Source: an uncultured Methanoregulaceae archaeon (GTDB taxonomy: Archaea > Halobacteriota > Methanomicrobia > Methanomicrobiales > Methanospirillaceae). From it: a stretch of DNA of 64,000 nt. Shown here piece after piece: positions 1,164-17,163 of this stretch. How positions within the stretch are numbered: the first letter of the stretch is position 1; each line of letters begins with the position of its first letter. The stretch spans positions 992,001 through 1,056,000 of the forward strand of contig OY969564.1 of NCBI GenBank assembly GCA_963701095.1, in the 5' to 3' direction. The notes beneath the pieces are model-generated. The model was not told the origin of the DNA and searched no databases. It saw nothing but the letters and a program-made list of their open reading frames with translations. Made by a program: the position numbers and the translations under genes.

Positions 1164-1169
1164 TGACGG

Positions 1170-2495
1170 ATGCCAAAAGAAGTAACTGATGTTATCTGCC
1201 CGTTCTGCGGGACATTGTGCGACGATATCCGCGTTACCGTTTCCGATGATAATAAGACGATCCTCGGTGTCAAGAACGCATGTGCAATCGGCGCCGAGAA
1301 GTTCAACCACCAGCGGCTCCCGGGCCGGGTCAAACGCCCGCGGATGCGACAGGCTGACGGGACATTTAAAGAGATCACGTACGATGAGGCCATTGACTGG
1401 ACCGCAAAAATGCTCGTAAAGTCAAGAAAGACTCTCATGTACGGCTGGGCATCCACCAGCTGCCAAGCTATGAGCATCGGCCACGAGATCGCAGAAAAGG
1501 TTGGCGGCATCGTCGATAACTGTGCAACAGTCTGCCATGGCTCATCTTTAATTGCCATTGAGGATGTCGGTGTCCCGACGTGTACCCTTGGTGAGGTCAA
1601 GAACCGTGCAGACCGTGTTATTTTCTGGGGATGCAACCCGGCACACGCTCACCCCCGGCACATGTCACGGTATTCAATTTTCCCGCGTGGGTTCTTCACC
1701 GTCAAGGGCCACAAAGGCCGGAAGATCTATTGTGTGGACTGCAGGTACACGGATACCGCGAAATGCGCCGATGAATTCATCCAGGTCCAGCAGGGCTATG
1801 ACTATGAACTGCTCAACGCATTCCGCACAGCAGCCCGTGGAGAAGTACTCCCCGACACCGTTGGCGGAGTTCCAAAAGAGAAGATCTACGAGATCGCAGA
1901 AGATCTCAAACAGGGCAGGTTCATTATCATCTTCTTCGGTATGGGCCTTACCCACACTATGGGCAGAAACCACAATATCGATATTGCGATCAACCTGACC
2001 CGTGACCTCAACGACTACACGAAATGCGCGATCATGGCCATGAGAGGACACTGGAACGTTACCGGTTCCGGTCAGGTTCTCGGATGGCAGTACGGGTTCC
2101 CCTACGCCGTAGACCTCTCACGGAGAGATCAGGCACGCCACCAGACCGGAGAGACGACATCCGTCGACCTCCTCAATAGAAACGAAGTCGAAGCCTGCTT
2201 CTATATCGCAACAGATCCGGGTGCACATTTCCCGGTTGATGCGATGATCAGCAGTTCCAAGAAGCCGACAGTCACAGTCGACCCGCACATCCAGTGCACG
2301 ACCGAGATTTCCGACATACACATCCCAGTCGCCATGGTAGGTGTTGAGACCGGGGGTTGTGCATATCGTATGGACAACGTTCCTATCGAGACCCGTAAAG
2401 TGGTAGATCCGCCGGAAGGCATGCTGACCGACGAAGAACTCCTGACCAAGATCAACCAGAAGGTTGATGAACTCCTTGCCAAAGGAGGAGCGTAA
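1170..2495 (+). CDS. fwdB: Formylmethanofuran dehydrogenase subunit B (Mo/W-pterin catalytic subunit, Cys form)
   Basis: CPFCGTLCDD N-terminal cluster motif, ATVCHG active-site Cys, WGCNPAHAHPRH, MRGHWNV. Confidence 0.95.
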   Translation: MPKEVTDVICPFCGTLCDDIRVTVSDDNKTILGVKNACAIGAEKFNHQRLPGRVKRPRMRQADGTFKEITYDEAIDWTAKMLVKSRKTLMYGWASTSCQAMSIGHEIAEKVGGIVDNCATVCHGSSLIAIEDVGVPTCTLGEVKNRADRVIFWGCNPAHAHPRHMSRYSIFPRGFFTVKGHKGRKIYCVDCRYTDTAKCADEFIQVQQGYDYELLNAFRTAARGEVLPDTVGGVPKEKIYEIAEDLKQGRFIIIFFGMGLTHTMGRNHNIDIAINLTRDLNDYTKCAIMAMRGHWNVTGSGQVLGWQYGFPYAVDLSRRDQARHQTGETTSVDLLNRNEVEACFYIATDPGAHFPVDAMISSSKKPTVTVDPHIQCTTEISDIHIPVAMVGVETGGCAYRMDNVPIETRKVVDPPEGMLTDEELLTKINQKVDELLAKGGA

Positions 2496-4202
2496 ATGTC
2501 AGAATATATCATCAAGAACGGACACGTCTTTGACCCGGTGCAGGGCATCAAAGGAGACAAAAAAGATATCGCCGTCAAGGACGGGAAGATCGTTGATAAG
2601 GTCGGATCTTCAGCAAAAACCATCGATGCCAAGGGAAAGACGGTCATGGCCGGTGCCCTTGATATCCACGCCCATGTAGCAGGCCCTAAGGTAAATGCCG
2701 GCCGCTGGTACCGTCCTGAAGACAAACATTTCGACTCCCACAAGGTCCCGGGAATTACCCGTATTGAAGGCGGCAAGTCCATTCCGACGGTTTTCAAGAC
2801 CGGGTACGCGTACGCACGGATGGGGTTCACCTTTGTCATGGAAGCAGCCATGCCCCCGATGTACGCCCGGCACGTGCACGAAGAAATCCACGATACGCCA
2901 ATTATCGATGAAGCAGCTCTTCCCGTCTTCGGTAACAACTGGTTTATCCTCGAATACCTGAAAAACCAGGAAATCGAGAACACGGCGGCATACATTGCAT
3001 GGATTCTCCGCCAAACCAAGGGATATGGGGTCAAATGCGTCAACCCCGGCGGCACAGAAGCCTGGGCATGGGGACTCAACTGCCTCACCATCCACGACCC
3101 GGTACCGTACTTCGATATCACGCCGGCAGAGATTATCACCGGCCTGATTGCTGCAAACGAGTATCTCGGCCTGCCCCATTCGATGCACCTCCACCAGAAT
3201 GATCTCGGTAACCCCGGGAACTACACGGTCACGCTCGATTCCCTGAAGCTTGCAGAAGGAATCAAGCCTAAGAACAATTTCGGACGCGAACAGGTCCTGC
3301 ACTCTACACATCTCCAGTTCCATTCCTATGGTGGGGACAGCTTCGCTAACATCGATTCAAAGGCAAAAGAGGTCATGGACTACGTCAACAAACAGAAGAA
3401 CCTCACCATTGATACCGGTCAGGTAACCCTTGACGAGACCACAACCATGACTGCTGACGGTCCATTCGAGCACCACCTCCATGCGCTTAACCACCTCAAA
3501 TGGTTCAACGTGGATGTCGAGCTTGAAACTGGCGCAGGTGTCGTGCCCTATATCTACAGCCCGAATGTCTCGGTAAATGCAATCCAGTGGGCAATCGGCT
3601 TGGAACTTGCCCTCTTTGCAAAGGATCCGGAGCGTTGTTTCATCACCACCGACCACCCGAACGCCGGGCCGTTCACCCGGTACCCGCGGGTCTATTCCTG
3701 GCTGATGAGCAAGAAAGTCCGTGATGAGCGCCTGAACACCTTTAAGAATGCCGATAAAATCATCGGTGCGACCTACCTCGCTGAGATCGACCGCGAGATT
3801 TCCCTGTACGAACTTGCCCAGATGACCCGGTCCGGCCCTGCAAGGGCACTCGGCCTTGGCAAAGACTATGGCGGCCTCGCTGTCGGCATGAACGCAGATA
3901 TTGCGATTTACAATATCGACCCGGACAACTTCCCCACCACCGGCGCTGATATTGAGAAAGCGTTTGCGAACGTTGCATACCTCTTCAAGGACGGTAAGAT
4001 CTGTGTTGAAGAAGGTAAAATCGTTGACATGGGCAACAAACACACCTTCTGGGTGGATGCCAAGGTCAATGAGAACAAACAGGTCATGCATGACATCAAG
4101 GAAAAATTCCTCAAGTATTACAGCCTGAGTGAGAACAACTATCCTGTTCCTGAGAGTTATGCACCGCACCAGCACATTCTTACCGTGGATGCGGTTCAGT
4201 GA
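2496..4202 (+). CDS. fwdA: Formylmethanofuran dehydrogenase subunit A (amidohydrolase fold)
   Basis: DIHAHVAG, KCVNPGG, HLQFHSYG, TTDHPNAGPF. Confidence 0.95.
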   Translation: MSEYIIKNGHVFDPVQGIKGDKKDIAVKDGKIVDKVGSSAKTIDAKGKTVMAGALDIHAHVAGPKVNAGRWYRPEDKHFDSHKVPGITRIEGGKSIPTVFKTGYAYARMGFTFVMEAAMPPMYARHVHEEIHDTPIIDEAALPVFGNNWFILEYLKNQEIENTAAYIAWILRQTKGYGVKCVNPGGTEAWAWGLNCLTIHDPVPYFDITPAEIITGLIAANEYLGLPHSMHLHQNDLGNPGNYTVTLDSLKLAEGIKPKNNFGREQVLHSTHLQFHSYGGDSFANIDSKAKEVMDYVNKQKNLTIDTGQVTLDETTTMTADGPFEHHLHALNHLKWFNVDVELETGAGVVPYIYSPNVSVNAIQWAIGLELALFAKDPERCFITTDHPNAGPFTRYPRVYSWLMSKKVRDERLNTFKNADKIIGATYLAEIDREISLYELAQMTRSGPARALGLGKDYGGLAVGMNADIAIYNIDPDNFPTTGADIEKAFANVAYLFKDGKICVEEGKIVDMGNKHTFWVDAKVNENKQVMHDIKEKFLKYYSLSENNYPVPESYAPHQHILTVDAVQ

Positions 4203-4213
4203 GGTGAAAAGGA

Positions 4214-5014
4214 ATGGAAACAATTACACTTACTGTTAAGAAAGTGCCGGAACTCTACCTTGAATGCGAAGGCCTGAACCCCGATACGTTTGCCGGCAAA
4301 TCTGTCGACCAGATTGCAAAGATCCCGATGTACCAAGGTAAGGAAATTTCCACCCTTGGTGAGTACTTCACGGTTGCAGGAACCACCGGGGCAACGGCAG
4401 CCGACACAAAGATCGTCGTGAACGGCGATTGCTCCAAGATGAAGTACATCGGCTCAAAGATGACCGCCGGTGAAATGGTGGTCAACTCAGACTGCGATAT
4501 GTACACAGGAAGCTGGATGAGCGGCGGTAAGCTCCTCGTCAAGGGCAACGTCCACTCATTCTGTGGCCTTGCCCTCAAGGGCGGCGAGTTTACTATCGAA
4601 GGCAATGCTGGCAACTATCTCGCCGCCGCATACCGTGGTGACTGGAGAGGAATGTCCGGCGGAGTACTCCGCGTAAAAGGGAATGCGGGTTCTGATGTTG
4701 CAAGCTTCATGACCGGCGGCACCCTGATCATTGAAGGCAGTGTCGATATCCACCTCGGTACCCACATGGAAGGCGGCAAGATCATTCTCAAGGGCAATGC
4801 AAACCGCCGGGTTGGCGGACAGCTCGTGAAAGGCGAGATCTATGTGTTCGGCACCATCAATGTCATGATGCCCGGCTACAAGAAGACCGGCGAGGTCGAT
4901 CTTGAAGTCGATGGCACCAAGGCAAAGTTTGACGAATATATTGGTGATCTCGGCGAGCGCCACCCCAAGAAGAAAGGCGAAACCGTTTACGGCAAGCTTT
5001 TCATGAAGAAATAA
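4214..5014 (+). CDS. fwdC: Formylmethanofuran dehydrogenase subunit C (beta-helix)
   Basis: Repeated GxxMxGGxxxVxGN units; AYRGDWRGMSGG. Confidence 0.95.
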   Translation: METITLTVKKVPELYLECEGLNPDTFAGKSVDQIAKIPMYQGKEISTLGEYFTVAGTTGATAADTKIVVNGDCSKMKYIGSKMTAGEMVVNSDCDMYTGSWMSGGKLLVKGNVHSFCGLALKGGEFTIEGNAGNYLAAAYRGDWRGMSGGVLRVKGNAGSDVASFMTGGTLIIEGSVDIHLGTHMEGGKIILKGNANRRVGGQLVKGEIYVFGTINVMMPGYKKTGEVDLEVDGTKAKFDEYIGDLGERHPKKKGETVYGKLFMKK

Positions 5015-5015
5015 C

Positions 5016-5024
5016 TTTTTTTTT
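5016..5024 (+). terminator. Oligo-T archaeal-type terminator after the fwd operon
   Basis: T9 run immediately after the fwdC stop; the next gene converges. Confidence 0.55.
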
Positions 5025-5064
5025 AGAGATTCTCGTATCAACTGAATTATTCCGCCAACCTTTG

Positions 5065-5448
5065 TTAATCGCGAGAAGCCTTCGCTATACCTTGTCGGGC
5101 ATCCATTTTTACGCTGATTGACGTGATTATTCCTTCAAGTGTCGCTCTCCCTGCCGGCCCCTGCCGGTAATAATAGAGGAGAAGGTGGAAAAAGTCGGCA
5201 GTTAAATCGGCAAACTCCCTTTTGTACCGGACCTCGACGTTGGTGTCTCCCACAAAACCCTTAATCGAGATAAACCGGTCTTTCTCGAAAGAGAAATACG
5301 GGCGACGCAGGTGTGAGAAAGATCTGACAGTGCCAAAATCTTCAAGAAAACCCAGGAATTCGGTTGTCAGTGGCTCGTCAAGCAGGTACTCTTTCATCAG
5401 CGAACCGTCCACACAGACTTTCGATTGGATCGACTTAAGAATCCGCAT
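5065..5448 (-). CDS. Hypothetical protein overlapping the cysteine desulfurase 3' end
   Basis: ATG at 5448 (MRILKSIQSKVCVDGS) overlaps the desulfurase stop region by 14 nt; natural-looking composition. Confidence 0.65.
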   Translation of the reverse strand: MRILKSIQSKVCVDGSLMKEYLLDEPLTTEFLGFLEDFGTVRSFSHLRRPYFSFEKDRFISIKGFVGDTNVEVRYKREFADLTADFFHLLLYYYRQGPAGRATLEGIITSISVKMDARQGIAKASRD

Positions 5449-6580
5449 TATCTGCAACCTCGCAGATCGCTTCGACAGCCTGCCTGCATTCATCAAAAGT
5501 GGTAAAATAGCCCGGGCTTATGCGGATACAGCCGGTCCCCTTGTCGATTCGCTCATGGATAAGTGGTGCACAGTGAAGGCCGGTCCGGGTAATGATGCCG
5601 TAGGCATTAGCAAGAATATTCCCCACATCATCCGGGGGGATTCCGGTAATATTAAACGGAACAACGGGGAGATCGGGATCCTGTGAATACAAAGTGATAT
5701 TACGGTTACATGCGAGTTCACGGGTGAATATGTTTGTACATTCACGATCATGCAGAGCAATCACGTCAAGCCCGACTTTTTCGATAAAACGAAGGCCGGC
5801 ATACAAGGAGGCAATCCCCGGATAGTTTGGTGTACCTGCCTCGAATCGCTCTGGCATACCTGTTGGATGCAAGAGCCTCTTTGAATCGGTCCCGGTCCCG
5901 CCCTCGCGAATGATAGCAATCCGATCCGGATCCCGAATCCAGAAACCGCCCGTTCCCGGCAACCCGTACAATGCTTTATGCCCGGTGAAGGCAAAGGCAT
6001 CCATTGGGACCTTTGAGAGATCGAGAGGAACCAGCCCTGCAGATTGTGATCCATCAACAATGAAAAAAATATCGTTTGCAGAAAGATAGTCCCCGACGTT
6101 CCTGATATCCTGAACCGTCCCGAGCACATTACTGCCATGGGTCATTACAACCAACCGGGTATCCGGCCGTACGGCATTTTTTATATCTTCAGGGTCGACC
6201 CGGCCGTCCGGACCTGATGGAACGATTGTGAGGGAAAGACAACTTTCGTGTTCAAGTGCAGAGAGCGGGCGAAGTACAGAGTTGTGTTCAAGATCGGTCG
6301 TAATAACGTGGAACGGTGAAGATTCCCGGCGTGCAAAACCATGAATCAGGATGTTGAGAGAGTCAGTAGCATTTGCAGTAAAAACCCAGTGATCAGCATG
6401 TTCTGTCTGGAAGCATGTCGAAAGGAGTTCCCGGGTCACTGAAGGATAATCGATTGCTGAACAGTATGCCGAGCGCCCGGCTTCAGCAAAGGGTTGGCTT
6501 AAGCACCGGGTTACCTCTGCAATAACCTCCCGGGGTTTAGGCCAGCTGGTTGCAGCATTGTTGAGGTAGATAAAAGGCAT
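5435..6580 (-). CDS. Cysteine desulfurase family protein (PLP aminotransferase class V, SufS-like group II)
   Basis: YLNNAATSWPKP, EHNSV, HGSNVLG, VDGSQ, FTGHK (PLP Lys), RTGLHCAP (catalytic Cys). Start at 6580 or 6607. Confidence 0.9.
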   Translation of the reverse strand: MPFIYLNNAATSWPKPREVIAEVTRCLSQPFAEAGRSAYCSAIDYPSVTRELLSTCFQTEHADHWVFTANATDSLNILIHGFARRESSPFHVITTDLEHNSVLRPLSALEHESCLSLTIVPSGPDGRVDPEDIKNAVRPDTRLVVMTHGSNVLGTVQDIRNVGDYLSANDIFFIVDGSQSAGLVPLDLSKVPMDAFAFTGHKALYGLPGTGGFWIRDPDRIAIIREGGTGTDSKRLLHPTGMPERFEAGTPNYPGIASLYAGLRFIEKVGLDVIALHDRECTNIFTRELACNRNITLYSQDPDLPVVPFNITGIPPDDVGNILANAYGIITRTGLHCAPLIHERIDKGTGCIRISPGYFTTFDECRQAVEAICEVADNADS

Positions 6581-6759
6581 ACTGGCCTTTTGATGCGGGA
6601 CTGACATGGACGCACTACAATAAATCTTACCGGCGTGCCTTAATGACTTTGTTACATTTTTCCGGTGAATCCCGGTCTTTCTCCCATTAACGATCAAATA
6701 CAATATGCTAATAAAGCGTGAATCCCTATAGAATAGCATACCATTTCGAGGTTATTTAC

Positions 6760-7026
6760 ATGGACGCGTACAGGTGCATGATGTGCGGTCATATCTATGA
6801 CCCGGCTGTCGGAGAGACAAAGGCATTCAACAACACAATTCTGGTCAACACGGACAGAATGGAAGAGTATGAGGGTAAAGTTATGGCATCCCAGCCGATT
6901 AAACCCGGAACTCCCTTCTCTGCTCTTCCTGCTGACTGGAGATGCCCGACCTGCGGGTACCCCAAGTCATACTACCAGAAGGTAACTCCGGACACCCTGA
7001 CCGCAATGCGGACAATCAGCTACTAA
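6760..7026 (+). CDS. Rubredoxin with internal insertion
   Basis: YRCMMCGHIYDP...PGTPFSALPADWRCPTCG; ATG at 6760 after GAGGT. Confidence 0.85.
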   Translation: MDAYRCMMCGHIYDPAVGETKAFNNTILVNTDRMEEYEGKVMASQPIKPGTPFSALPADWRCPTCGYPKSYYQKVTPDTLTAMRTISY

Positions 7027-7161
7027 AAAGACCCATTATCTCTTTTTCAAGTAAAGAATTTTATTTGGCCATCCTTCCTTCAAAACGAGCCTTCATTCAC
7101 TATTACCAAGGCTGATACGGAGAACTTCGGGCCTGAATAGTAAAAGATTATCGTTTTGATC

Positions 7162-7388
7162 TTATTGGTATCCTGGCACTTCTATGCGGGGGACCTTTCC
7201 TTCTATTGTGTCCCGGTACAATCGCTCAGGAAATGTCGCGTGCCTGATCGCACTGTAGGCCTCATAGAGAACCGGTGCGTAGTATTTTGTACTCCGCCGG
7301 GTAAGACCACGATCAGTTGCTTGTTCTCAATATCATACCCCAGTTCCCGAATTCCATTCGAGACAAATCTATCCCAGACTATACTCAT
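7162..7388 (-). CDS. KTSC-domain protein (frameshifted at T4 7285-7288)
   Basis: SNGIRELGYDIENKQLIVVLPGG; adding one A continues as VQKYYAPVLYEAYSAIRHATFPERLYRDTIEGKVPRIEVPGYQ*, matching the KTSC pattern. Confidence 0.6.
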
Positions 7389-7493
7389 GCACACACACAC
7401 CTTGCACAACCGGATCAGTTGTGGCTGCCGACCGTTTTACCCACGGGAAGATAAATGTTTGCGGGAATTGCAAAAAAGAAAAAAACGTATATT

Positions 7494-8369
7494 CTATCCT
7501 TCAATCATTTTTTCAATGGACTTCTTGAACTCATCAAACTCAAGCTCGTCAAGCTGTTCAGGAAGCATCTCACCGCTCGAGGCCTGCCGGTAGATCCAAT
7601 AGATAATCCGGTCAACTACCCTGATAGCATCATCCTGCGTCTTTACGGTAATAAGGTGACGCCCTAACTTTGGATGTCTGCCCCGGCGTCCACCTACCGT
7701 TATCCGGTACTCCGGGTCTTCGGCGGATATAATATTGAATGGGCAGGGAAGGATACAGAAACCACATTCCATGCAGAGATCCTTGTGCAGGACAACAAGG
7801 CCATCAGTCACTTCAATTGCCTTCTCCCTGCAGTAATGGGTGCATGTCCCGCAGCCGGTACAGAGTCCGGGATCACGTATAGGGCGGCGCGTACCGGTGA
7901 TACCGATTTCGTTGAGGCGTTCACTTTCACAGCCGTTAGGACATGCAGAGATTGCTATTCTCACCTTGACCGGCAGTTCCCTCCCGAAAAAACGTTTGTC
8001 GATTTCCCGTGCAAGACCTACACTGTCGATGATGCCGAACTTGCAATGCCTGGTTCCCAGACACGAGGTTACGTTGACGACTTCCTCGCGTTCAGCGCCC
8101 AGGGGGGTGCCATTTTTTTCCAGATCTTTTACGAGTCCCTCGAGCTTTCGGGGATCGACATGAGGCAGCTCTACGGTCTGCCGGGTCGTAAGATGGAGAT
8201 CGGTTACCCCGTAACGATGGGCAATCTTTCCAAGCCCCTGCATCTGTTCAGGGGTGATCATTCCTGCCGGCATACGGAGGCGGACGATACAGAAGTGAGG
8301 GTCGATTTCTGTAATAATTCCGCCCTTTGTATAGAGCGATTCATCAATCTGAGATTTTTTCTGTTTCAT
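7494..8369 (-). CDS. Siroheme sulfite/nitrite reductase-like protein with 2x[4Fe-4S] insert (Dsr-LP / AsrC-like)
   Basis: VRLRMPAG, LHLTTRQ, SCLGTRHC and SACPNGC siroheme-cluster ligands; CTGCGTC and CMECGFC ferredoxin motifs; GGRRGRHP. Confidence 0.85.
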   Translation of the reverse strand: MKQKKSQIDESLYTKGGIITEIDPHFCIVRLRMPAGMITPEQMQGLGKIAHRYGVTDLHLTTRQTVELPHVDPRKLEGLVKDLEKNGTPLGAEREEVVNVTSCLGTRHCKFGIIDSVGLAREIDKRFFGRELPVKVRIAISACPNGCESERLNEIGITGTRRPIRDPGLCTGCGTCTHYCREKAIEVTDGLVVLHKDLCMECGFCILPCPFNIISAEDPEYRITVGGRRGRHPKLGRHLITVKTQDDAIRVVDRIIYWIYRQASSGEMLPEQLDELEFDEFKKSIEKMIEG

Positions 8370-8469
8370 ATCTGACTAGTGCTTCGCCATAACAATGGAT
8401 AGAGGTTACGAATGTACACCAATGAGTAAAGTACAAATGATTATTACACTCCGTTGCGTAGTACGTACC

Positions 8470-9039
8470 ATGGTGAAGCATTCCGAATATATGGAAGCTT
8501 TTTTTGGCGTCGAGCTTAACCAGAAATTCGAAGATATGATAAATGAACTTAAGGACGCGGAGGACAACCTTAAGGAACTTTCCCTTGAAATTGGAAAACT
8601 GGGAGAGATAAAGGACACGGATACCCTCAGTGAATCTATCAAGGAATGCCGGGCCGTAGCATATGAAAATGCCCAGAGCATAAAAGATGTCCGCACTTTT
8701 CTTGATTTTTACCTTAAATCCGACAAAACATCCACTCATATCATCCTCGAAAGGGATGCCTATATGAAAATCTATCAAATCTTCAAGTGGGACGGCGCAG
8801 ATGTCCGGGATCTCAAACGCTGGATTGGTGACCTTAAAGAAATCTGTGATAAGATCGGCCTGAACATGAGGGACCTTATCAATTTCAAGAAACTTACTTC
8901 ACAACCCGTACCCCCGGAACTGGTTAAATTCCCGGTGTATGCACTTGATCGGCAGGGCTACTGCCTGACCGGTCCCGCGTTTGACATGGTCCTTCATATC
9001 GATGAAGTCCGTGAACAGATGGCCGAGAACTCGAACTAA
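8470..9039 (+). CDS. Hypothetical alpha-helical/coiled-coil protein
   Basis: Long ORF with heptad-like N-half, followed by T9; start uncertain (8395/8422/8470). Confidence 0.7.
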   Translation: MVKHSEYMEAFFGVELNQKFEDMINELKDAEDNLKELSLEIGKLGEIKDTDTLSESIKECRAVAYENAQSIKDVRTFLDFYLKSDKTSTHIILERDAYMKIYQIFKWDGADVRDLKRWIGDLKEICDKIGLNMRDLINFKKLTSQPVPPELVKFPVYALDRQGYCLTGPAFDMVLHIDEVREQMAENSN

Positions 9040-9042
9040 TAA

Positions 9043-9051
9043 TTTTTTTTT
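9043..9051 (+). terminator. Oligo-T terminator
   Basis: T9 run 3 nt after the stop at 9039. Confidence 0.45.
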
Positions 9052-9126
9052 ATCCACTGTATCTGAGGTCAGATAGCAGAGGGGAATAGATAAATAACGC
9101 TATTTTCAAATCATCAGTATTCCTTC

Positions 9127-10350
9127 ATGGCCTCACATTTTTTTCTTTTAAGGGATGCTCTCAGTCCGGAGCGGCTCGGCTGGATGGAAGAGCTATTGAA
9201 ATTCTATTTTCTAAAACTCAATCCGCAGAGCTTCCTTCATGCCTCGAAGGAACGCGACGCAGCGTTTATCTTCTTTTTAACCGGTGACGCCCTGTATAGT
9301 CTCCAGGACCCTTCAATGATCGAACTCTGGGAGAATTTTCTCTCCCTGCCGTCGATAAAAATAGTCTGTGACCAGGAAGAACTTGCTCTCCGGGGGATTG
9401 CAACCGAGCGGCTCAAGATGAAAAATCCCGAACTGGTCATTACCCATAACAGCCTTGCCCTGAACGGTAGACCCTCATTCTGGAAAGATGTCACGCGATA
9501 CGCCCGGCAGCATGACCAACCGATCCCCAGTACTATCGGATATCTTCACATGGCATCCCCGTATATGAACCGCTCATCAGGCATCCTGCCTGACTGTCTT
9601 GGTGCGGCGCTTGAATCACACGCCTCGTGTGATCTCTACTGTTACCTTGATGGTGTTCACATCTGTCATGATGGCCAGAACCCGGTAGATGCTGAAAATA
9701 TAGGCAATGATCTGGAAAACCTCGACACACGGGCTGGAAAACGCGGTCTTCATTTCCAGATATATGTAAGTGCCCGGTGTGCCGAAACCCGGGGATATTG
9801 TATCCGGGATCAGAATGAGGGCCTTGTACCAGTCTGTACCATCAGGCCGGTAAAACTCCGTGAATTAAAAGATATTGCCACGCAGTTCCGTAGTAATCAT
9901 ATCATTATCTCCGAGAATTGTGCATCGTTTTTCACAAAAAAAGAGAATGTAAAACAGTCGCTTGGCTTTGACGAGAGGGGACGGGGACCACCTATAACTA
10001 TCCTCGTTACCCGGCACCCATTAAGTGCAGAGTACGCTTCCGGCGCACTTGATTTTGCCATTGCATGTGCTTCGCGGGATATCCAGACAAGCGTCATTTT
10101 CATCGAAGACGGGGTTTATGCACTTTCCAAGGCGACCACTTCTAACAAGCTGCAGGAAACGATAGATGCTGCATCCGGAAGCAAAAATCTCCAGTTTTTT
10201 GTGTTTTCACCCTCTCTTTCGGCGAGAAATATCAGTAAAAATCCGAAATTAACCGGAGTGATACCTGTTTCTATTGCAGATCTCGGAAACCTTCTTTTCT
10301 TCATGCCAACCGGTGTAGTGGCATCCCATCAGCGAATATTCTTTTTTTAA
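9127..10350 (+). CDS. Three-domain DsrH/DsrE/DsrF (TusB/TusD/TusC)-like sulfur relay fusion protein
   Basis: Three DsrE-fold signatures: FLTGDALY...ELALRGI; SPY...YLDGVH...SARCAETRG; RHP...FIEDGVYAL...SLSARNI. Confidence 0.7.
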   Translation: MASHFFLLRDALSPERLGWMEELLKFYFLKLNPQSFLHASKERDAAFIFFLTGDALYSLQDPSMIELWENFLSLPSIKIVCDQEELALRGIATERLKMKNPELVITHNSLALNGRPSFWKDVTRYARQHDQPIPSTIGYLHMASPYMNRSSGILPDCLGAALESHASCDLYCYLDGVHICHDGQNPVDAENIGNDLENLDTRAGKRGLHFQIYVSARCAETRGYCIRDQNEGLVPVCTIRPVKLRELKDIATQFRSNHIIISENCASFFTKKENVKQSLGFDERGRGPPITILVTRHPLSAEYASGALDFAIACASRDIQTSVIFIEDGVYALSKATTSNKLQETIDAASGSKNLQFFVFSPSLSARNISKNPKLTGVIPVSIADLGNLLFFMPTGVVASHQRIFFF

Positions 10351-10364
10351 CCCGGAAAGAGACA

Positions 10365-11114
10365 CTATTCCTCTTCAGACGCACTCAGCGCGGCTCCAAT
10401 CGCCCCGACTATTTGCGGGTCAGGCGGTACAAAAACAGGTCTGCCCATCTCGTTTTCAAGGAGTATCCGCACGCAGTCGTTCAACGCCACACCGCCAGCA
10501 AAAAATATTTTTTCTGTTGGTGCAACCCGTTTCAGGAGACCTGCGGAACGGCTTACAATAGATTTGTGGATACCAAGTGCCACTTCATTCCGAAGTGCAC
10601 CTTGGGAAATGAGTGATACAACTTCAGATTCGGCAAAGACGGTACACATGCTGTTGATCTTTTCTGCCCTTGTGGCGGAAAGGGCAGCCGCCGAGAATTC
10701 TTCCAACGTGAAACCGAGCACGGTTGCCATGACCTCAAGGAAACGCCCGGTCCCCGCAGCACACCGGTCGTTCATTTCGAATTTGCATAAATCGCCTCTG
10801 CTATCCAGTGAAATTGCTTTTGTATCCTGTCCCCCGATGTCAAGAATTGATCCGCAGCTATCCGAGAAAAAACGGGCTCCGAGAACAAAGGCTGTTATCT
10901 CGGTTATCACCGGACACGAAAGATGACCTTTGATCAGGTGCCTCCCATATCCGGTAGCGGTGATACGATCAAATACCGTATCGGCCATTAGTTCCCGCGC
11001 CGTCCCAAGCGGGTCGTGAGATGTAACAATCTTGCGGGAAAGAATGAGCTCGCCGTTTTCTATAACGGCAAGCTTGATGGTACGTGAACCTATGTCAATT
11101 CCCGCGAATCTCAT
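10365..11114 (-). CDS. ASKHA ATP-dependent activator/reductase (HgdC/BadFG family; DCCP reductase-like)
   Basis: GIDIGS, ATGYGR, DIGGQDTK, MNDRCAAGTG, SMCTVFAESE; ATGA overlap with the upstream gene. Confidence 0.9.
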   Translation of the reverse strand: MRFAGIDIGSRTIKLAVIENGELILSRKIVTSHDPLGTARELMADTVFDRITATGYGRHLIKGHLSCPVITEITAFVLGARFFSDSCGSILDIGGQDTKAISLDSRGDLCKFEMNDRCAAGTGRFLEVMATVLGFTLEEFSAAALSATRAEKINSMCTVFAESEVVSLISQGALRNEVALGIHKSIVSRSAGLLKRVAPTEKIFFAGGVALNDCVRILLENEMGRPVFVPPDPQIVGAIGAALSASEEE

Positions 11115-12391
11115 TTTTTCTTCAGGCGCTCGCCAAATGCTTCAATTCTTGTCTTGAGCTGACCTGCATCTTCCATACCATAATCAGTTTCAAGACGTAA
11201 GGTCGGTATGCCAGACTTTTCCAGCTCTTTTTCTACCGGACCGCTTTCCATGATATACGGCTGGCAGAATTGCAGGCTGTAATGAATGACCCCCTTGGCG
11301 TGGAGACTTTTTGTCATCTCTTTTATGTATTCAAGCCGTGAGGGATTTGGCGTAAACACTGCGCAGTCAATATTGAAATACCGGTCAGTGATAGCATCAA
11401 GAAGTTCGTCAACCGTGTTACCTTTTACTTCGGTCAGCCACCGTGAACCCCGTTCTCCAACACATGACTCCTCACCAACAATCACACCATTGCTGGATTC
11501 AATAAGGAAAGGAAGTTTCCAGTTCGGGACGGCCATGGGGCATCCTGAAACAATAACACGTGTGGTCCCCTTTGGAAACACGCCATTGTGGTTTTTCACG
11601 CGGACTTCCAGCTCGTCACAGAGTTTGTTGACCGCATCCGTAAACCGGACCGGATCATCATGGAAAAAGACCTGGTTTACCAAGAGGGAATCAAGTCCTG
11701 AAATTGGTGCCGGATCTGCAGCTCGAATCGCAGCAAGTCTTTTTACAGCCCTTCGTTTCGCATTTACCAGTTCAACTGCCTTTTTCAATGACGCAGCGGT
11801 TATCTTCTTTCCGCTTACTTTTTCGAGCTTTTCGATAAATTTACGGTATTCTTCCTTGAGGACAGATTTAGCCATTTCAGATTTTGTCTGGGGAAGGTCC
11901 ATGATATAGAGGTCTTTTACCAGCGGGCCCATTATCTCATAAGCCTTTTTCTTACCGTCGCAGGTATTCTCTCCCACAATAACATCGCAGGACTCCAGAT
12001 AGGGGCATACCTTCCCGAGTTTAAAACCAAATGCGGATTTAATAAGCGAACAGGTGTTCCTGGGCAGGAGAGTTTCGGCGCCTTCAAAATTAAATTCTGC
12101 ACCGGCACACAATCCGACCGCAACCCCGTCTACGGCAAGAACCAGCTCTTCCGGGACAAAGACGCAGTATGAACCGATTATTACCCGGCCCTGTTCTTTG
12201 GCATCCATAAGCTCCTTGATACGGAGTCCATGAACTTCGCTCATTACAAAATCGAAATACTTCATTCCCTCAGGGCGGTTCTTTTGTGACAGGAAAATAT
12301 CCGTATAGGCTTTTCCAAGACCCGCGAGAAGTGCGTCATGGGTCTTGATATCAAGTCCCAGCGACTCCCACATTTTTGTGTAATCTGTCAT
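11111..12391 (-). CDS. Double-cubane-cluster protein-like (2-hydroxyacyl-CoA dehydratase HgdD fold)
   Basis: GSYCVFVPEE, GLCAG, PRNTCSLIKS, KVCPY, GENTCDGKKK, EESCVG, IDCAVFTPN, LQFCQPY; single gene paired with an activator; ATG at 12391. Confidence 0.8.
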   Translation of the reverse strand: MTDYTKMWESLGLDIKTHDALLAGLGKAYTDIFLSQKNRPEGMKYFDFVMSEVHGLRIKELMDAKEQGRVIIGSYCVFVPEELVLAVDGVAVGLCAGAEFNFEGAETLLPRNTCSLIKSAFGFKLGKVCPYLESCDVIVGENTCDGKKKAYEIMGPLVKDLYIMDLPQTKSEMAKSVLKEEYRKFIEKLEKVSGKKITAASLKKAVELVNAKRRAVKRLAAIRAADPAPISGLDSLLVNQVFFHDDPVRFTDAVNKLCDELEVRVKNHNGVFPKGTTRVIVSGCPMAVPNWKLPFLIESSNGVIVGEESCVGERGSRWLTEVKGNTVDELLDAITDRYFNIDCAVFTPNPSRLEYIKEMTKSLHAKGVIHYSLQFCQPYIMESGPVEKELEKSGIPTLRLETDYGMEDAGQLKTRIEAFGERLKKK

Positions 12392-12421
12392 GTTTTTGCG
12401 ACCTTCCTCTTTTTGCATTTA

Positions 12422-12946
12422 CTATGAGATTTTTCTGACCTCTGCTTTCAGCCTGATTGGATTCCGGATGGTGAACATGCCCATACAATGTCCCAGGGAA
12501 TACTCTTTCAGGTCCTCTACCTGTGCATCGGTCAGGTCTCCTTTAATGTCCAGAATGACCCGGAACTCGTTGACAAGGGGTGCCTTCCCGAGGTCAAACT
12601 GGGCTGTGTAATCGAGATCTGCCTCGACCCGGGTCTTGACAGAAGTGAGCCGGATGTTTCTCAGGGAAGCTTCAGTGACAAAGGTGCTTGAGTAACAGGC
12701 AGCAAACCAGAAGAGTCCGAATGCCATTGGCCCGGGCCGTACACCGGGGCCGGCGAAGTTCGGGTGGCTTGCTTCCATGGTATAGGTACCATCCTTTACC
12801 TTTACAACCGAACGGAACTGGGGTCCACCTTCTTCAAAGAGCCAGTCTCCTTCGATCTTAGCCGTGAACTTTGCATCTCCCGGCTTTTTCTGGATCTCTT
12901 TTTTATAATCGACAACCTGCTTCGTATCAATGTTATTCAGACCCAT
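12422..12946 (-). CDS. OsmC/Ohr family protein
   Basis: HPNFAGPGVRPGPM...AAC and GHCMGMFTIRNP two-Cys pattern. Confidence 0.75.
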   Translation of the reverse strand: MGLNNIDTKQVVDYKKEIQKKPGDAKFTAKIEGDWLFEEGGPQFRSVVKVKDGTYTMEASHPNFAGPGVRPGPMAFGLFWFAACYSSTFVTEASLRNIRLTSVKTRVEADLDYTAQFDLGKAPLVNEFRVILDIKGDLTDAQVEDLKEYSLGHCMGMFTIRNPIRLKAEVRKIS

Positions 12947-13029
12947 TGGTTAACACCCAAGGAATGTTTGCTAATATAGGTAAAAAAAGTTGTGTTAATA
13001 ACTGTTTAATAAATTTTAAATGTGTTTAA

Positions 13030-13416
13030 CTACTTCATTGCGCTCTTCCAGATACCGATTGCATTTCCCTCTGTATCCCGGATGATTGCAATTTCACCAA
13101 TAGTCTTAATTTCTCTTTTGGGGACTTCGATCTTACCGCCCAGTTTTTCTACGTTTGCGAGAACCTTGTCAATATTATCGACAAGGACGTAATTTATGAT
13201 GTTCTCCGACATCTGGCGCTTATACATACCTCCCCAGCTCATGGTTCCTTTCTCTTCGTTTCCGGTGATCACGTCCTGGTACTCCATCGATTGCTTCATT
13301 GCCGGATCCATCGGCGTTTTTGTCGGCACAATCTTCCATCCGAGTAGTGCATGATAGAATTTTTTTGCGCGATCGACATCCTCTGCAGGAATCTCAAAAT
13401 ATCCGATATTTGACAT
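13030..13416 (-). CDS. VOC (glyoxalase/bleomycin resistance) family protein
   Basis: YFEIPAEDVDRAKKFY...LGGKI...DTEGNAIGIW. Confidence 0.9.
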   Translation of the reverse strand: MSNIGYFEIPAEDVDRAKKFYHALLGWKIVPTKTPMDPAMKQSMEYQDVITGNEEKGTMSWGGMYKRQMSENIINYVLVDNIDKVLANVEKLGGKIEVPKREIKTIGEIAIIRDTEGNAIGIWKSAMK

Positions 13417-13519
13417 GGCATGTGGATAGGATCAGGAGGTTATGTATATTCCCGCATTTCTCAAAACAAGTTTCAAAAGATGAAAGAGGAAAAAGGAAGA
13501 TTGCCTTGGTTATGATACC

Positions 13520-14296
13520 TTACGTTTCTTCATTAAAATCCGGGGAGGGATCCTTATACTGGTTCTTGTGCCGCTTTTGGGCCTCTTTTTCCCGGTCGAG
13601 CGCGTCAGGATCGACGTGCCATTCTGTCCTGCGGAGGAGACCGTGGATGGTGCTGGCTTCCCGGGTAGTAAGGCCTGCCCTGCCGAGAATGCGACGGATC
13701 ATGATCATGGTATTTTCCCGTTTGAACGCTGGATGGTGCACGGAATCCAGGAACCGGTCGATGTGCTGGTAGAGATGGCCGAGTTCGTAGGGAGAGGCAA
13801 GCCGGTACTGTGCGGACGGAAGGTTTGCCAGTTCATAGCAGACAATACCAACCGCATGGGAGAGGTTCATAATGGGGTACTCCGGGGCAGTCGGGATCGT
13901 GCAGATCATATCACTGCGTTTTACTTCCTCGTTATTGAGCCCCCAGTTTTCTCGGCCAAAGAGGATAGATACCCGGCCATCTGCGGTTCCGATACGTTCC
14001 CGCAATTCTCGGGGCGAATAAAATGGCATCCTCATGGGAGTGCAGACCGATTTGCTCACCTGGCCGGTTGTGGCTACCACGATACTGCTCCGGGAAAAAA
14101 CATCCTCCATGGTGCAGATCTTTGCATTTTTTAAAACATCCTGTGCATGGGAGGCTCTTCCTTTCGCTTCCTCACCCATTGTGCAGGGATCTACAAGCAC
14201 TAACCGGGTAAACCCGAAATTCTTCATCACCCGTGCGGCAAACCCCACGTTCCCTTCATAGAGGGGGGCCACGAGCACGATGTCGATTTCAGGCAT
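13520..14296 (-). CDS. trmJ: SPOUT tRNA 2'-O-methyltransferase, TrmJ family
   Basis: NVGFAARVMKNFG, LFGRENWGL, YPIMNLSHAV. Confidence 0.85.
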   Translation of the reverse strand: MPEIDIVLVAPLYEGNVGFAARVMKNFGFTRLVLVDPCTMGEEAKGRASHAQDVLKNAKICTMEDVFSRSSIVVATTGQVSKSVCTPMRMPFYSPRELRERIGTADGRVSILFGRENWGLNNEEVKRSDMICTIPTAPEYPIMNLSHAVGIVCYELANLPSAQYRLASPYELGHLYQHIDRFLDSVHHPAFKRENTMIMIRRILGRAGLTTREASTIHGLLRRTEWHVDPDALDREKEAQKRHKNQYKDPSPDFNEET

Positions 14297-14304
14297 AAAA
14301 AAAG

Positions 14305-14991
14305 TTACTGGACCGCGTCCACCGTGTCTTTAAGGACGGAGGCTCCCTGATCATACACTGCGTTTCCTACGACAATCGTATCCGCATACTTCCCCATTTC
14401 AGATGCCTTCTGTGCAGAATTGATCCCACCGCCATAATAGAGGATCGCTTCGTCGATTGCTTCAGCTGCTGCTTTTACCACAGCGGGATCGCCGTATGTC
14501 CCTGAATATTCGATATAAACGATCGGGAAATGGAAGTACCGGTCGGCGACCGCAGTATATGCGGCGACTTCTTCTGGTTTAAGATCGCAGATGGCCTTTG
14601 TTACCCGGCCTACCGAAGAGTTGGGGTTAAGGACGATATATGCTTCAGGAACTACCTTGTCCCACGGAATGTTCCCGTCCTGCTGCTGGACCCAGTACCG
14701 GTGTTTGCCAACAATCCATTGCACATCAGTCGTGTTCAACACACTTGGCACAAAGACGTACTCAATCCCGTCGAGAAGCACAGCTTCTGGGCCCGCCGGC
14801 TCCATCACGAGGGGAAGATCATACCGGGCTATCTGCTTCTGGAGGGAAAGCAGGTTCTCTTTTGTCACATTCAGCGTTCCCGACAACATGAGCGCATCAG
14901 TTCCGCTGGTAGCAATTGCATCGATGTCCCCGGGTTTGAGTTGTTTGTCAGGATCGAGTTTGGTCACGTGAACCCAGTCTTTCCATTTCAT
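14305..14991 (-). CDS. Geranylgeranylglyceryl phosphate synthase (group I, PcrB-like)
   Basis: HVTKLDPDK, EAYIVLNP, YIEYSG, YGGGI, VVGN; ATG at 14991 (MKWKDW). Confidence 0.85.
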   Translation of the reverse strand: MKWKDWVHVTKLDPDKQLKPGDIDAIATSGTDALMLSGTLNVTKENLLSLQKQIARYDLPLVMEPAGPEAVLLDGIEYVFVPSVLNTTDVQWIVGKHRYWVQQQDGNIPWDKVVPEAYIVLNPNSSVGRVTKAICDLKPEEVAAYTAVADRYFHFPIVYIEYSGTYGDPAVVKAAAEAIDEAILYYGGGINSAQKASEMGKYADTIVVGNAVYDQGASVLKDTVDAVQ

Positions 14992-15095
14992 AGCAGTATC
15001 AGCATCATGTATGTTGTTTATCAAAATAAACTCTGACGCCTTCTTGAAAAGGATTTCAGGATTCATTCCTGTCCTGGTATCTGCGATAGTATTAT

Positions 15096-16017
15096 CTATT
15101 CCAGTCCTATCGGAAGGATATCGTCAATACTATTCACAAAAGTGACATTTATGCCAATATTGTTTTCAATATAATCTTTTGCAGAAATCTGTTCCGGTAC
15201 CTGCTGGATCAGCTGAAAACCGCCATAATTTGTTACCGTCTCGTTGTAATTGGTAAAAACGGCATTTTCTTCAGGGAGGAGGAATAAGGTTTTTCCGCTC
15301 TCTTTTGCAGCAGTCGCTTTTTCGATTACACCGCCGATTGCGCCCACATGTCCGTCTGTATCAATGGTCCCCGTCAGGGTGATATGCGGATTAATCGTCC
15401 GGTTTTCTATGGCAGCAATAGTTGCAAGGGTCATCAATGCACCGGCACTCGGCCCGTCCACAGAAGAAATCTGGTTTTCTGCCTGAATGGAAAAGATAAC
15501 ATCACTGCCGGAAAGATTAATCCCAGTCCTGTTCTCGGCAACTGCCACAGCAGTATTTGCGGCGTCCTGGAACACAACACCCATCAGTGGCGTCGTCTGG
15601 ACCAGCACTCTTCCTTCTCCTGGCTGAATCTCAACGGAGAGATTCATCATCGTGCCATTGGATACAATGTTCTGAGTAACAAATCCCCCATTATTGACAT
15701 TAACTACATTCTGGGAGACTGCCGGTGCCTGTATCGTTGCATATCCCGTTAAAGTAAGCGATGGACCTGAAGAGTTAAGGCCGGAAGTGGGGAATCGTGT
15801 GCGATAAAACGAGAGTTGGGATGAAGAGCCCAAAAAGTCTGGTATTTGCCTGATCCAGCTGACGGTGCAGCTGCATGTTCTCCGTTGTGAGCGAATTCGT
15901 TTTTTCGACGAGATTCGAGATGATTCCCTGCTGCTGTGGCACATAGATTGCGAAAGTGACTATGTTTGCCGCAACTGAGACAACGAGCAAGGCTGCAAGA
16001 ACGTGGATTGTCTTCAT
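15096..16017 (-). CDS. Membrane-anchored Lon-like S16 serine protease without ATPase domain (frameshift near 15832-15836)
   Basis: N-terminal TM + coiled coil in ORF 15775-16017; DGPSAG and GGVIEK Ser-Lys dyad in ORF 15096-15944; removing one base from A5 joins them. Confidence 0.8.
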
Positions 16018-16285
16018 AGCATATCCTGCCGGTCAATTTTTTCATGTTTTGTAAATTTTCGATGGGAATAAAGATTACGTTTGAGGAAATTTTCTGGCAT
16101 ATGCGTGCTGAAATTTTAATCCTCTACTATTATCCTCAAAATCCCGCAATTTTGGAAAAAAGTATCTGAAAAAAAACAAATCGGGTATCATACTAGGTTT
16201 TATCGTGTCCTGTGTGTAGTTCACCATAATTATCCGGAATTCAAGAGTCCGCTCTTGTTACCGGAGACACAACGGAGATACAAAA

Positions 16286-16723
16286 ATGTCGACCGTAGAA
16301 GAAAATAAGCGCCTCATGCAGACGCTGGATGATGCCTGGAACTCCCAGGACTGGGTAACATTCGAGAAACGCCACGCGAAAGATGTTGATGTCTTCTGGC
16401 CGGGCCAGGAAAAACCGACTCACGGCAGGCCATCCCATAAGGATGAGGCCATCGCATTCTTCAAAATATTCCCTGACAACAAAGTCGGGAACCGTCCCTA
16501 TAAGACCCTGTTCGGGGAGGGGGACTGGACGTGTTCGGTCGCCGATTTCACCGGAACGTTCAAGGGCCCGATGAACACTCCCGATGGCAAAGAGATACCG
16601 CCCAACGGGAAGAAGTTTAAGGTAGAGTTCTGCACGGTCGCCCACTGGAAGAACGGGGAGATCATCGAGGAGAAGCTCTTCTATGACAAGATCTCCCTGA
16701 TGCAGCAGATCGGCCTGATGTAA
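16286..16723 (+). CDS. SnoaL-like / ester cyclase (NTF2 fold) protein
   Basis: AWNSQDW, GEGDW, FTGTFKGP, IPPNGK, WKNGEIIEE. Confidence 0.85.
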   Translation: MSTVEENKRLMQTLDDAWNSQDWVTFEKRHAKDVDVFWPGQEKPTHGRPSHKDEAIAFFKIFPDNKVGNRPYKTLFGEGDWTCSVADFTGTFKGPMNTPDGKEIPPNGKKFKVEFCTVAHWKNGEIIEEKLFYDKISLMQQIGLM

Positions 16724-16725
16724 GA

Positions 16726-17163
16726 ATGGGTATAAAGGACGTTGAGCGTATGAGTTTTGTCAGAGTTGCTACGGTAAGCGAAATTCCTGCGGGAACCATG
16801 AAACACGTTGAAGTAGGGGGAAAAGAAATCTGCATCGCAAATGTAAGTGGGAAATTTTATGCGATCAACGACCGGTGTGGTCATGAGAACGCCCGGCTCT
16901 CCCGGGGATCCCTCATAAATACCATCGTAACCTGCCCCATGCATTCTTCACAGTTTGACATAACTACCGGGAAACTGATGTCGGGGCCGGTTCTTGAACT
17001 CGCCGGGATAAAAGAGATGTTTACCGGCTGTCCCGAAAAAGTGAAAAAAGCAGTGGAGCAAATGTATGAGGGGATTTTCGAGGAGCAACGCCTGATCAAA
17101 ACGTACGATCAGTTAGTTTACGACGTGAAAATGGATGGCAGCGACGTGCTTGTCCAGATTTAA
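16726..17163 (+). CDS. Rieske [2Fe-2S] ferredoxin with insertion
   Basis: RCGH and TCPMHSSQFDITTG Rieske ligands. Confidence 0.85.
   Translation: MGIKDVERMSFVRVATVSEIPAGTMKHVEVGGKEICIANVSGKFYAINDRCGHENARLSRGSLINTIVTCPMHSSQFDITTGKLMSGPVLELAGIKEMFTGCPEKVKKAVEQMYEGIFEEQRLIKTYDQLVYDVKMDGSDVLVQI

Follow-up and report, generated by a model that had tools for sequence, protein, structure and literature searches.

The 64,000-nt window analysed here, positions 992001-1056000 of the 2.63-Mb single-contig genome of an uncultured Methanoregulaceae archaeon, holds at 5065-12946 an island of sulfur and low-potential redox genes beside the fwd operon, which encodes formylmethanofuran dehydrogenase (Fwd), the tungsten/molybdenum (W/Mo) enzyme at the start of methane formation. 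This island is physically tied to Fwd and to W/Mo cofactor-assembly genes in Methanoregula and related Methanomicrobiales. We read the stretch as one arm of a conserved mosaic island for sulfur mobilisation and relay, which would serve the W/Mo-pterin cofactor of Fwd and its iron-sulfur (Fe-S) load while a small siroheme protein of the dissimilatory sulfite reductase-like type (Dsr-LP) clears sulfite; we put the chances of this reading at about even. The component families are already known, and the island is a variant of sulfur relay and cofactor sulfuration systems.

An open reading frame (ORF) listing of the window, together with Pfam and NCBIfam scans against curated cut-offs, located at 5065-12946 all seven genes that the initial annotation had placed within about 8 kb as sulfur or low-potential redox genes, and the two family scans agree with it on the position of each. 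Three genes were added to that list: orf143, orf214 and a frameshifted gene for a KTSC-domain protein. The fwd operon and the island are composed as follows.

383-5014, plus strand: fwd operon in the order ferredoxin, D, B, A, C (Pfam)
383-724, plus strand: 2x[4Fe-4S] ferredoxin of the fwd operon (Pfam)
753-1163, plus strand: FwdD (Pfam)
1170-2495, plus strand: FwdB (Pfam)
2496-4202, plus strand: FwdA (Pfam)
4214-5014, plus strand: FwdC (TIGR03122, 237.9 bits)
5065-5448, minus strand: orf143, 127 aa, without a Pfam match (alignment A5)
5435-6607, minus strand: cysteine desulfurase-like pyridoxal phosphate (PLP) enzyme, csd (Aminotran_5, 223.4 bits, cut-off 21.5)
6760-7026, plus strand: rubredoxin, 88 aa (Pfam, 63.5 bits, cut-off 23)
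7162-7388, minus strand: small frameshifted KTSC-domain gene, intact in relatives (tblastn)
7494-8369, minus strand: siroheme sulfite-reductase-like protein, sir, the Dsr-LP (NIR_SIR, NIR_SIR_ferr, Fer4)
8470-9039, plus strand: orf214, true length 189 aa (alignment A2)
9127-10350, plus strand: DsrE-like multi-domain protein, 407 aa, called the fusion below (Pfam DsrE at the C-terminus, 57.3 bits, cut-off 22.7)
10365-11114, minus strand: ASKHA-type ATP-dependent activator, DCCP-R-like (TIGR00241, 229.5 bits, cut-off 125.4; PF01869, BcrAD_BadFG, 169 bits)
11111-12418, minus strand: double-cubane-cluster reductase, DCCP1 (NF040772, 450.5 bits, cut-off 350; PF06050, 387.8 bits)
12422-12946, minus strand: OsmC-family protein (PF02566, 48.4 bits, cut-off 27.5)

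By gene order, strand and spacing these genes fall into about six transcription units, which bears out the earlier caveat that several units lie on both strands.

The tie to Fwd is seen in gene neighbourhoods across the order. In a sample of 121 of its genomes, with families labelled f1-f6, the DsrE-like fusion occurs in 25 (16/22 in f1, 7/20 in f2, 1/22 in f4 and none in f3, f5 or f6), and the fwd operon is present in 17 of the 20 loci (up to 20 kb) fetched around fusion hits. A species-level genome scan returned 157 relatives of the fusion, and the best 80 loci, from Methanoregula, Methanoregulaceae, Methanolinea and Methanomicrobiales, were counted. Genes for Fwd are found in 58 of these 80 (36/46 where the full 9-kb flanks are present), moeA or moeA-PBP in 51 and another molybdopterin oxidoreductase in 17; at least one of the three accompanies the fusion at 74 loci, and among the six loci that lack a Mo/W gene altogether, four are contigs shorter than 12 kb. 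The other parts are present at 52 loci for sir, 42 for orf214, 34 each for rubredoxin and for a tusA directly upstream of the fusion, 33 for OsmC, 30 each for DCCP and the activator, 28 for csd, 27 for orf143 (standing beside csd), 21 for a GCAxxG protein and 17 for the two halves of a YeeE-type channel. The relay idea of the initial annotation is retained in our reading; fwd, which it had taken as a mere landmark, is instead the conserved anchor.

Whole-genome tblastn finds the fwd operon in single copy. Just upstream of the window, at genome positions 989813-992090 (locus L003), lies a second DsrE-like fusion of 408 aa, 33% identical and with Ser at the position of Cys218, followed by a metallo-beta-lactamase (MBL)-fold protein of 312 aa and then by the fwd operon. 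The only Fwd genes of the cell thus stand between two DsrE fusions. The arrangement varies between loci, in that the island diverges from the ferredoxin gene of fwd, follows fwdC, or is set apart from fwd by moeA genes; since orientation and spacing differ, the link has outlived rearrangement. Two families of the order repeat the arrangement sir/orf214/DsrE fusion/OsmC, whether or not DCCP and activator are included, and parts of it recur in two further families, so that the gene-neighbourhood survey proposed at the outset finds the orthologues in recurring order rather than scattered.

A second group of fusion paralogues stands in moeA-PBP/moeA/tusA/fusion arrays, with moeA at 30 of 39 loci and tusA directly upstream at 17, and at one of these loci the next genes encode two Oxidored_molyb proteins and an ABC transporter of the Mo/W type. 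In f4, orf214 is found beside a FwdC-like gene among moaE, mobB, moeA, moeA-PBP and modBC-like genes, with the mcr operon adjacent. Six loci of f6, a family without the fusion, carry csd and/or FdhD, yeeE-yeeE-tusA-osmC, and GCAxxG and/or sir beside fwdDBAC, with orf214 divergent; in other f6 copies orf214 directly follows fwdC. The f6 csd is non-orthologous, being 30% identical to that of the window, and loci L107 and L122 have FdhD and gave no csd hit; a cysteine desulfurase has thus been recruited twice, from different subfamilies. Three independent markers of the Mo/W cofactor, MoeA, FdhD and MoaE/MobB, are therefore found together with the sulfur parts.

Some further features of these loci are recorded here. 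At two f4 loci (L110:3306-8241 and L115:2571-7492) the orf214/FwdC-like pair is directly beside mcrBDCGA. One fusion locus carries a pair of IS605 OrfB/Cas12f-like (TnpB) transposases beside moeA (L077:6114-7230). In the genome of the window, a moeA-PBP homologue at 21715-23573 (minus strand) appears as two adjacent tblastn pieces, possibly a frameshifted gene or two genes.

Could the fusion, its partners and fwd be functionally unrelated neighbours, kept together as core-genome order by common ancestry within Methanomicrobiales? All loci come from one order, the island is divided into six transcription units on both strands, and csd, orf143, rubredoxin, DCCP and YeeE/TusA come and go between genomes, all of which would fit. 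However, the association with fwd and moeA survives changes of order and orientation, paralogue duplication and the swap of csd for a 30%-identical analogue; by our own arithmetic a random gene in a 2.6-Mb genome has a chance of about 1% of lying within 10 kb of a single 4.6-kb fwd operon; and the housekeeping flanks spoU and pcrB stay with the island at just 4 of the 80 loci. We consider this explanation very improbable.

Many relatives encode two half-size Sulf_transp (YeeE/YedE-type) genes and a 75-aa TusA between orf214 and the fusion, these being the 17 loci counted above. The corresponding interval of the window (9040-9126, compared with L007:8079-9376) and the closest relatives lack yeeE-yeeE-tusA. 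According to the accessible text of PMC11073785, YeeE/YeeD (TsuA/TsuB) form a thiosulfate uptake pair; in the relatives, likewise, a gene for a 75-aa TusA-family protein comes after the Sulf_transp genes, although their channel is split into two genes of ~175 aa and the unit is absent from the window. A rule by which a locus holds YeeE/TusA or DCCP1 but never both was rejected, a weak trend being all that was seen. Among 33 loci with enough flank, 14 have YeeE/TusA, 12 have DCCP1, 7 have neither and 0 have both, and the gene tree implies at least 7-8 switches (independent-pairs sign test, p ~0.125), yet genome G041 carries the two side by side; of 81 genomes of the genus, 11 have YeeE, 17 have DCCP1 (at least 76% identity) and 1 has both, against ~2.3 expected by chance (own arithmetic), a difference that is not significant. 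A selenium reading, prompted by SclA-like best hits and the YedE/YedF literature, was also dropped for the genome of the window, because the best SelD score is 67.7 bits against a cut-off of 125 in a genome estimated as ~86% complete.

The accessible part of PMC13653126 describes a terminal sulfido ligand in W-Fwd and a bacterial FdhD that takes sulfur from IscS to sulfurate bis-molybdopterin guanine dinucleotide (bis-MGD) enzymes of the formate dehydrogenase (FDH) type. The island resembles the IscS-FdhD system in placing a desulfurase beside a Mo/W bis-pterin CO2-reducing enzyme with a sulfido ligand, and the f6 version has csd followed by FdhD; unlike in that system, the gene after the csd of the window is orf143, which is not FdhD-like. 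The canonical FdhD of this genome is found at 2119893-2120564, 1.1 Mb away, near an IscS-like gene, and none is present in the window cluster.

It is conceivable, though in our judgement unlikely, that the island has no part in Fwd maturation and serves general sulfur assimilation or detoxification, namely thiosulfate uptake, cysteine desulfuration for the whole cell and sulfite reduction, lying beside fwd merely through a common reduced-ferredoxin pool or common regulation. YeeE/TusA and Dsr-LP would suffice for thiosulfate use and sulfite removal, the canonical FdhD/IscS pair is encoded elsewhere, and the Dsr-LP has its own two-cluster ferredoxin insert, its donor being given as unknown in the accessible text of the Methanococcus maripaludis study (bioRxiv 10.1101/2024.03.05.583561). 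Such an account leaves unexplained, however, the presence of TusA and the fusion in moeA/moeA-PBP arrays (the 30/39 second-paralogue loci), of FdhD inside the f6 operon, and of f4 orf214 among moaE, mobB and modBC-like genes. In our reading of a relay that serves Fwd, the candidate carrier is the DsrE-like fusion.

Among named records the fusion is confined to Methanomicrobiales. In its predicted model, with a predicted local distance difference test (pLDDT) of 85.7 and a predicted template modelling score (pTM) of 0.88, residues 134-263 superpose on YchN (Z 15.3), TusD (Z 14.8) and DsrE (Z 14.7) and residues 286-407 on the DsrE/F-like protein 3mc3 (Z 9.4), and a profile search against PDB sequences agrees (DsrF, E 2.6e-4; DsrE, E 0.017). 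The N-terminal third resembles the DsrE fold only in the strand/helix order of the model and in a GDA motif. Of the 'DsrEFH-like fusion' proposed initially, the two DsrE-type domains find support in the fold, which the N-terminal third lacks; the description is good for two-thirds of the chain, because the first 130 residues gave no signal. Conserved cysteines in 81 members are Cys237 (81/81), Cys81 (76/81), Cys314 (65/81) and Cys218 (52/81). By motif, rather than by superposition, we take Cys218, which precedes RGY, to be the classical DsrE/TusD Cys.

The TusA/DsrE relays known elsewhere (E. coli TusA-TusBCD, Allochromatium DsrEFH, TusA-DsrE modules of sulfur oxidisers) serve tRNA thiolation or DsrAB/sHdr contexts. 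Their fold is common to the middle and C-terminal domains of the fusion, and in relatives of the window, too, TusA is encoded directly upstream (the 34 loci above). The fusion differs in being one chain of 407-414 aa instead of three subunits, with an N-terminal third that is not recognisably DsrE-like, in having Cys237 invariant and the Cys218 position variable, and in its setting, which is beside fwd/moeA in methanogens. In a complete genome of the same genus (G017) the orthologue is in two pieces with an in-frame TGA (G017:C1:845291-846533; L010:9665-10534) and may be broken.

The sir product has a CX5C...CX3C siroheme-cluster motif plus two CxxCxxCxxxC motifs, and a 2x[4Fe-4S] ferredoxin domain is inserted in it along with NIR_SIR and NIR_SIR_ferr domains. 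This is the architecture of group III Dsr-LP as described in the accessible text of Susanti and Mukhopadhyay (PMC3448663), where subgroup d is set by four sulfite-binding Arg/Lys residues. Among solved structures it comes closest to the C-terminal half of F420-dependent sulfite reductase (Fsr, 7np8; 273 residues aligned, E 8.1e-37). With Fsr and group III Dsr-LP it shares the NIR_SIR domains, the siroheme-cluster Cys motifs and the ferredoxin insert; unlike Fsr it has no F420H2-oxidase half, and we place it in group III as a whole rather than in any of the subgroups a-d. The group IIId Dsr-LP of M. maripaludis is a working sulfite reductase needed under sulfite and thiosulfate, as reported in the accessible part of bioRxiv 10.1101/2024.03.05.583561.

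Next to sir, orf214 encodes a mostly helical protein with one invariant Cys and a mean column identity of 82% over 22 sequences (alignment A2). Its model (pLDDT 82.7) gave no PDB match by Foldseek (best E 0.8) and no named Atlas cluster, and its sequence no Pfam or NCBIfam hit; the 178 database homologues carry no functional name, apart from a few odd automatic ones, and, one hit excepted, no Pfam family. Its spread is wider than that of the fusion (31/121 sampled genomes, including 10/22 in f6 and 6/22 in f4), and its neighbour is sir and/or fwdC in four of the families. From families where it occurs, 20 loci were fetched, of which 19 contain orf214, and 13 of these 19 have fwdC or a FwdC-like gene within 300 nt. 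We infer that orf214 is a protein linked to Fwd and the Mo cofactor.

The desulfurase is of type II, SufS/CsdA-like, with TIGR01977 and SclA as the nearest families, and scores below every named NCBIfam subfamily cut-off, just under it for TIGR01977 (374.8 vs 377) and further below for SclA (299 vs 525) and SufS (198 vs 475). H210-K211 and C346 (in RTGLHCAP) are invariant in 13 sequences (alignment A6); the Lys and the loop Cys are the PLP-binding and persulfide-forming residues of the desulfurase family. The 3' end of csd is overlapped by orf143 over 14 nt. The product of orf143 has a single invariant Cys, in KVCVDGSLMKE (alignment A5), matched no Pfam family even at E 10, and among Atlas clusters matched unnamed archaeal ones only. 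An FdhD-like identity was rejected (hhalign probability 0.1%). A complex prediction for csd with orf143 scored 0.30 (mark 0.32) and counts neither for nor against pairing; the gene overlap and co-occurrence are consistent with orf143 being a candidate partner or sulfur acceptor of the desulfurase.

Rubredoxin has two CxxC pairs (CMMCG and CPTCG), and csd, orf143 and rubredoxin in the layout of the window are found only in its own genus. Downstream of sir, the KTSC gene is split over two frames near 7285-7295, beside a short A-run. It is intact, as an ORF of 72-77 aa, in about 30 related loci, and the homologue of locus L058 matches PF13619 with 25.4 bits (cut-off 25). In the nearest relative, L024, the gene likewise matches in two frames; either the two share a frameshift or the split reflects an error of assembly.

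OsmC, DCCP and the activator form a minus-strand operon headed by OsmC, the activator gene overlapping that of DCCP by 4 nt. C83 and C153 of OsmC are invariant in 17 sequences (alignment A7), and the protein scores far below the cut-off of the OsmC-related (seleno)protein model (34 vs 95). Its subfamily is narrow: 10 of 301 sampled genomes of the phylum have it, all Methanomicrobiales save for one weak match. Counting operon types among 100 loci, we found OsmC-DCCP1-activator, the type of the window, in 13 cases including longer variants; OsmC-GCAxxG-DCCP2, where DCCP2 is a 36-40%-identical paralogue, in 10 cases plus 3 appended to OsmC-DCCP1-activator; and, in f6, TusA-OsmC followed by GCAxxG and/or Dsr-LP in 6 cases. 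Across these three kinds of operon OsmC is therefore constant and the reductase behind it varies. As with Carboxydothermus hydrogenoformans DCCP and DCCP-R, the pair in the window passes the equivalog model and has an overlapping ASKHA activator gene; in contrast to them, the type seen here is always preceded by an OsmC-family gene, and the DCCP2 paralogue follows OsmC-GCAxxG. For double-cubane proteins the accessible text of PMC9351452 states that the physiological function is unknown. OsmC, as the head of operons with DCCP paralogues or Dsr-LP, places DCCP in a sulfur context that can be tested; the earlier suggestion that the sulfur-bridged double-cubane cluster itself is fed by the relay found nothing in its support.

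Adjacency is the basis on which putative roles in sulfur handling can be assigned to DCCP, the activator and OsmC. Going further along the same line, we speculate that this OsmC acts as a sulfur carrier with two Cys rather than as a peroxidase, and that DCCP with its activator reductively resolves its sulfur adduct (trisulfide, thiosulfonate or persulfide), a proposal drawn from adjacency only and one that we hold to be a long shot. Under it, Dsr-LP would take the place of DCCP in f6, two genes after OsmC, and DCCP2 would do so in many Methanoregula. With OsmC/Ohr thiol peroxidases the protein shares the Pfam family and two invariant Cys, unlike them it belongs to a narrow subfamily that is operonic with TusA, Dsr-LP or DCCP.

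The same proteins might instead form an island against oxidative and sulfite stress, protecting or repairing Fwd as an oxygen-labile enzyme, with OsmC as a hydroperoxide reductase, rubredoxin as an electron carrier for O2 and reactive oxygen species (ROS), Dsr-LP removing sulfite that arises on contact of sulfide with oxygen, the desulfurase and relay re-sulfurating damaged cofactor and clusters, and DCCP re-reducing an oxidised target. OsmC belongs to a peroxiredoxin-like family and has two invariant Cys; rubredoxin is present at 34 of the 80 loci; the sulfido ligand of FDH-type enzymes is described as oxygen-sensitive in the accessible text of PMC12140954; and Dsr-LP matters under sulfite stress in what is accessible of bioRxiv 10.1101/2024.03.05.583561. 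Against this, no superoxide reductase, rubrerythrin or F420H2 oxidase was seen in the annotated loci, and OsmC is operonic with TusA/YeeE in f6, which indicates sulfur handling rather than peroxide. A stress island appears improbable to us.

We return to the sulfur relay serving Fwd, whose transfer steps are all proposed from gene identities and linkage that were observed directly. The PLP desulfurase, with its catalytic Cys and PLP Lys conserved, would mobilise the sulfane sulfur of cysteine and pass it to the orf143 product. Relatives may also take up thiosulfate by the split YeeE-type channel and TusA, for which the genes are seen in those relatives and not in the window. The multi-domain DsrE-like protein would then carry the persulfide, with Cys237 as the invariant residue, and the sulfur would go to FwdB, as dithiolene and/or terminal sulfido sulfur of its bis-pterin W/Mo cofactor, and perhaps also to the many Fe-S clusters of Fwd; the last step could fall to the canonical FdhD, whose gene lies elsewhere in the genome. 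The adjacent small siroheme Dsr-LP would reduce sulfite arising from thiosulfate or from oxidised sulfide, and two-Cys OsmC, DCCP and the ATP-driven activator, in their separate operon, may be a thiol- or sulfur-directed reductase unit of very low potential. Among the targets listed in the initial annotation (Fe-S, pterin, thionucleoside synthesis and the double-cubane cluster) the pterin cofactor is the best supported, because the neighbours are MoeA, MoeA-PBP, FdhD, MoaE, MobB and Mo/W transporters, and the double-cubane cluster is unsupported.

Several observations weigh against this relay. All functional evidence is gene neighbourhood within one archaeal order, and the loci are not independent, as relatives share synteny by descent. 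Both the fusion and orf214 were found in 0/12 genomes of f3 and 0/22 of f5, and since these families run Fwd without the island, it must be accessory. The sole TusA gene of the genome lies at 772164-772388 (minus strand), 220 kb from the window, and tblastn found no YeeE match in the whole genome, window included. With a canonical FdhD and an IscS-like gene elsewhere, sulfido insertion can be explained without the island, and the annotated loci showed no genes of the MoaD/MoeB type beside the relay. Within the fusion, the N-terminal domain compared with the middle domain gave an hhalign probability of 1% and residues 1-130 no structural hit, and the supposed classical DsrE position is Cys in just the 52 members noted. 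No common operator motif was found in ten island intergenic regions. Finally, expression is thin, covering only fragments of sir, orf214 and the activator.

That last point comes from two metatranscriptomes in which contigs cover the fwd genes well. On the island, contigs match sir at 8070-8345 (1 mismatch/276), orf214 at 8535-8952, the activator at 10738-11009 (3 mismatches/272) and pieces of the interval between rubredoxin and sir; none lies on csd/orf143 (5138-6538) or on most of the fusion and DCCP, and contigs cannot show absence. The hint of transcription is a weak one because such libraries can hold DNA. In metatranscriptome X16, a contig with a depth of 11.7 over 7006-7472 (rubredoxin-sir) stands above the neighbouring genes and has a loose end at 7281; the signal may be a 3' untranslated region, a KTSC transcript or DNA carry-over. 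TGAATCCCGG, the sole sequence to recur (2 sites near the island), was rejected as a shared regulatory motif and is not informative because the genome holds 11 copies against ~5 expected.

As for the rest of the window, ORFs 7156-7593 and 7674-8375 (both plus strand) were treated as non-coding, having no family match and, for the second, lying antisense to sir. Rfam gave no match across positions 1-14000 at E 0.1. Downstream of the island, 13030-17654 encodes a protein with a glyoxalase fold, the methylase SpoU, PcrB, a protease with a Lon-C domain, SnoaL-like and Rieske proteins and an unassigned ORF of 139 aa, of which only spoU and pcrB remain beside the island in the closest relatives.

In the literature searched, supplements not covered, no paper connects Fwd with either DsrE or TusA, and none connects double-cubane proteins with OsmC. 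Four things appear to be undescribed there, namely the fused DsrE-like architecture, which is confined to Methanomicrobiales, the orf143 and orf214 families, the OsmC-DCCP pairing and the fixed association of the island with fwd and moeA.

Sulfur insertion into the W/Mo cofactors and Fe-S-rich enzymes of methanogens is poorly known, and the island offers a testable parts list for Fwd maturation in Methanomicrobiales: a desulfurase with its small partner, TusA, YeeE, the fused DsrE carrier, Dsr-LP, OsmC, GCAxxG, DCCP and orf214. Three orphan families, the small Dsr-LPs, the double-cubane proteins and the KTSC proteins, gain a genomic context from it. For the double-cubane proteins, the conserved OsmC partner and the sulfur/Fwd neighbourhood narrow the substrates worth testing. 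If the sulfur-carrier proposal for OsmC were true, it would give these proteins their first physiological job, an ATP-powered sulfur activation feeding the W/Mo cofactor of Fwd, and the DCCP step would be partly interchangeable with thiosulfate import by YeeE/TusA.

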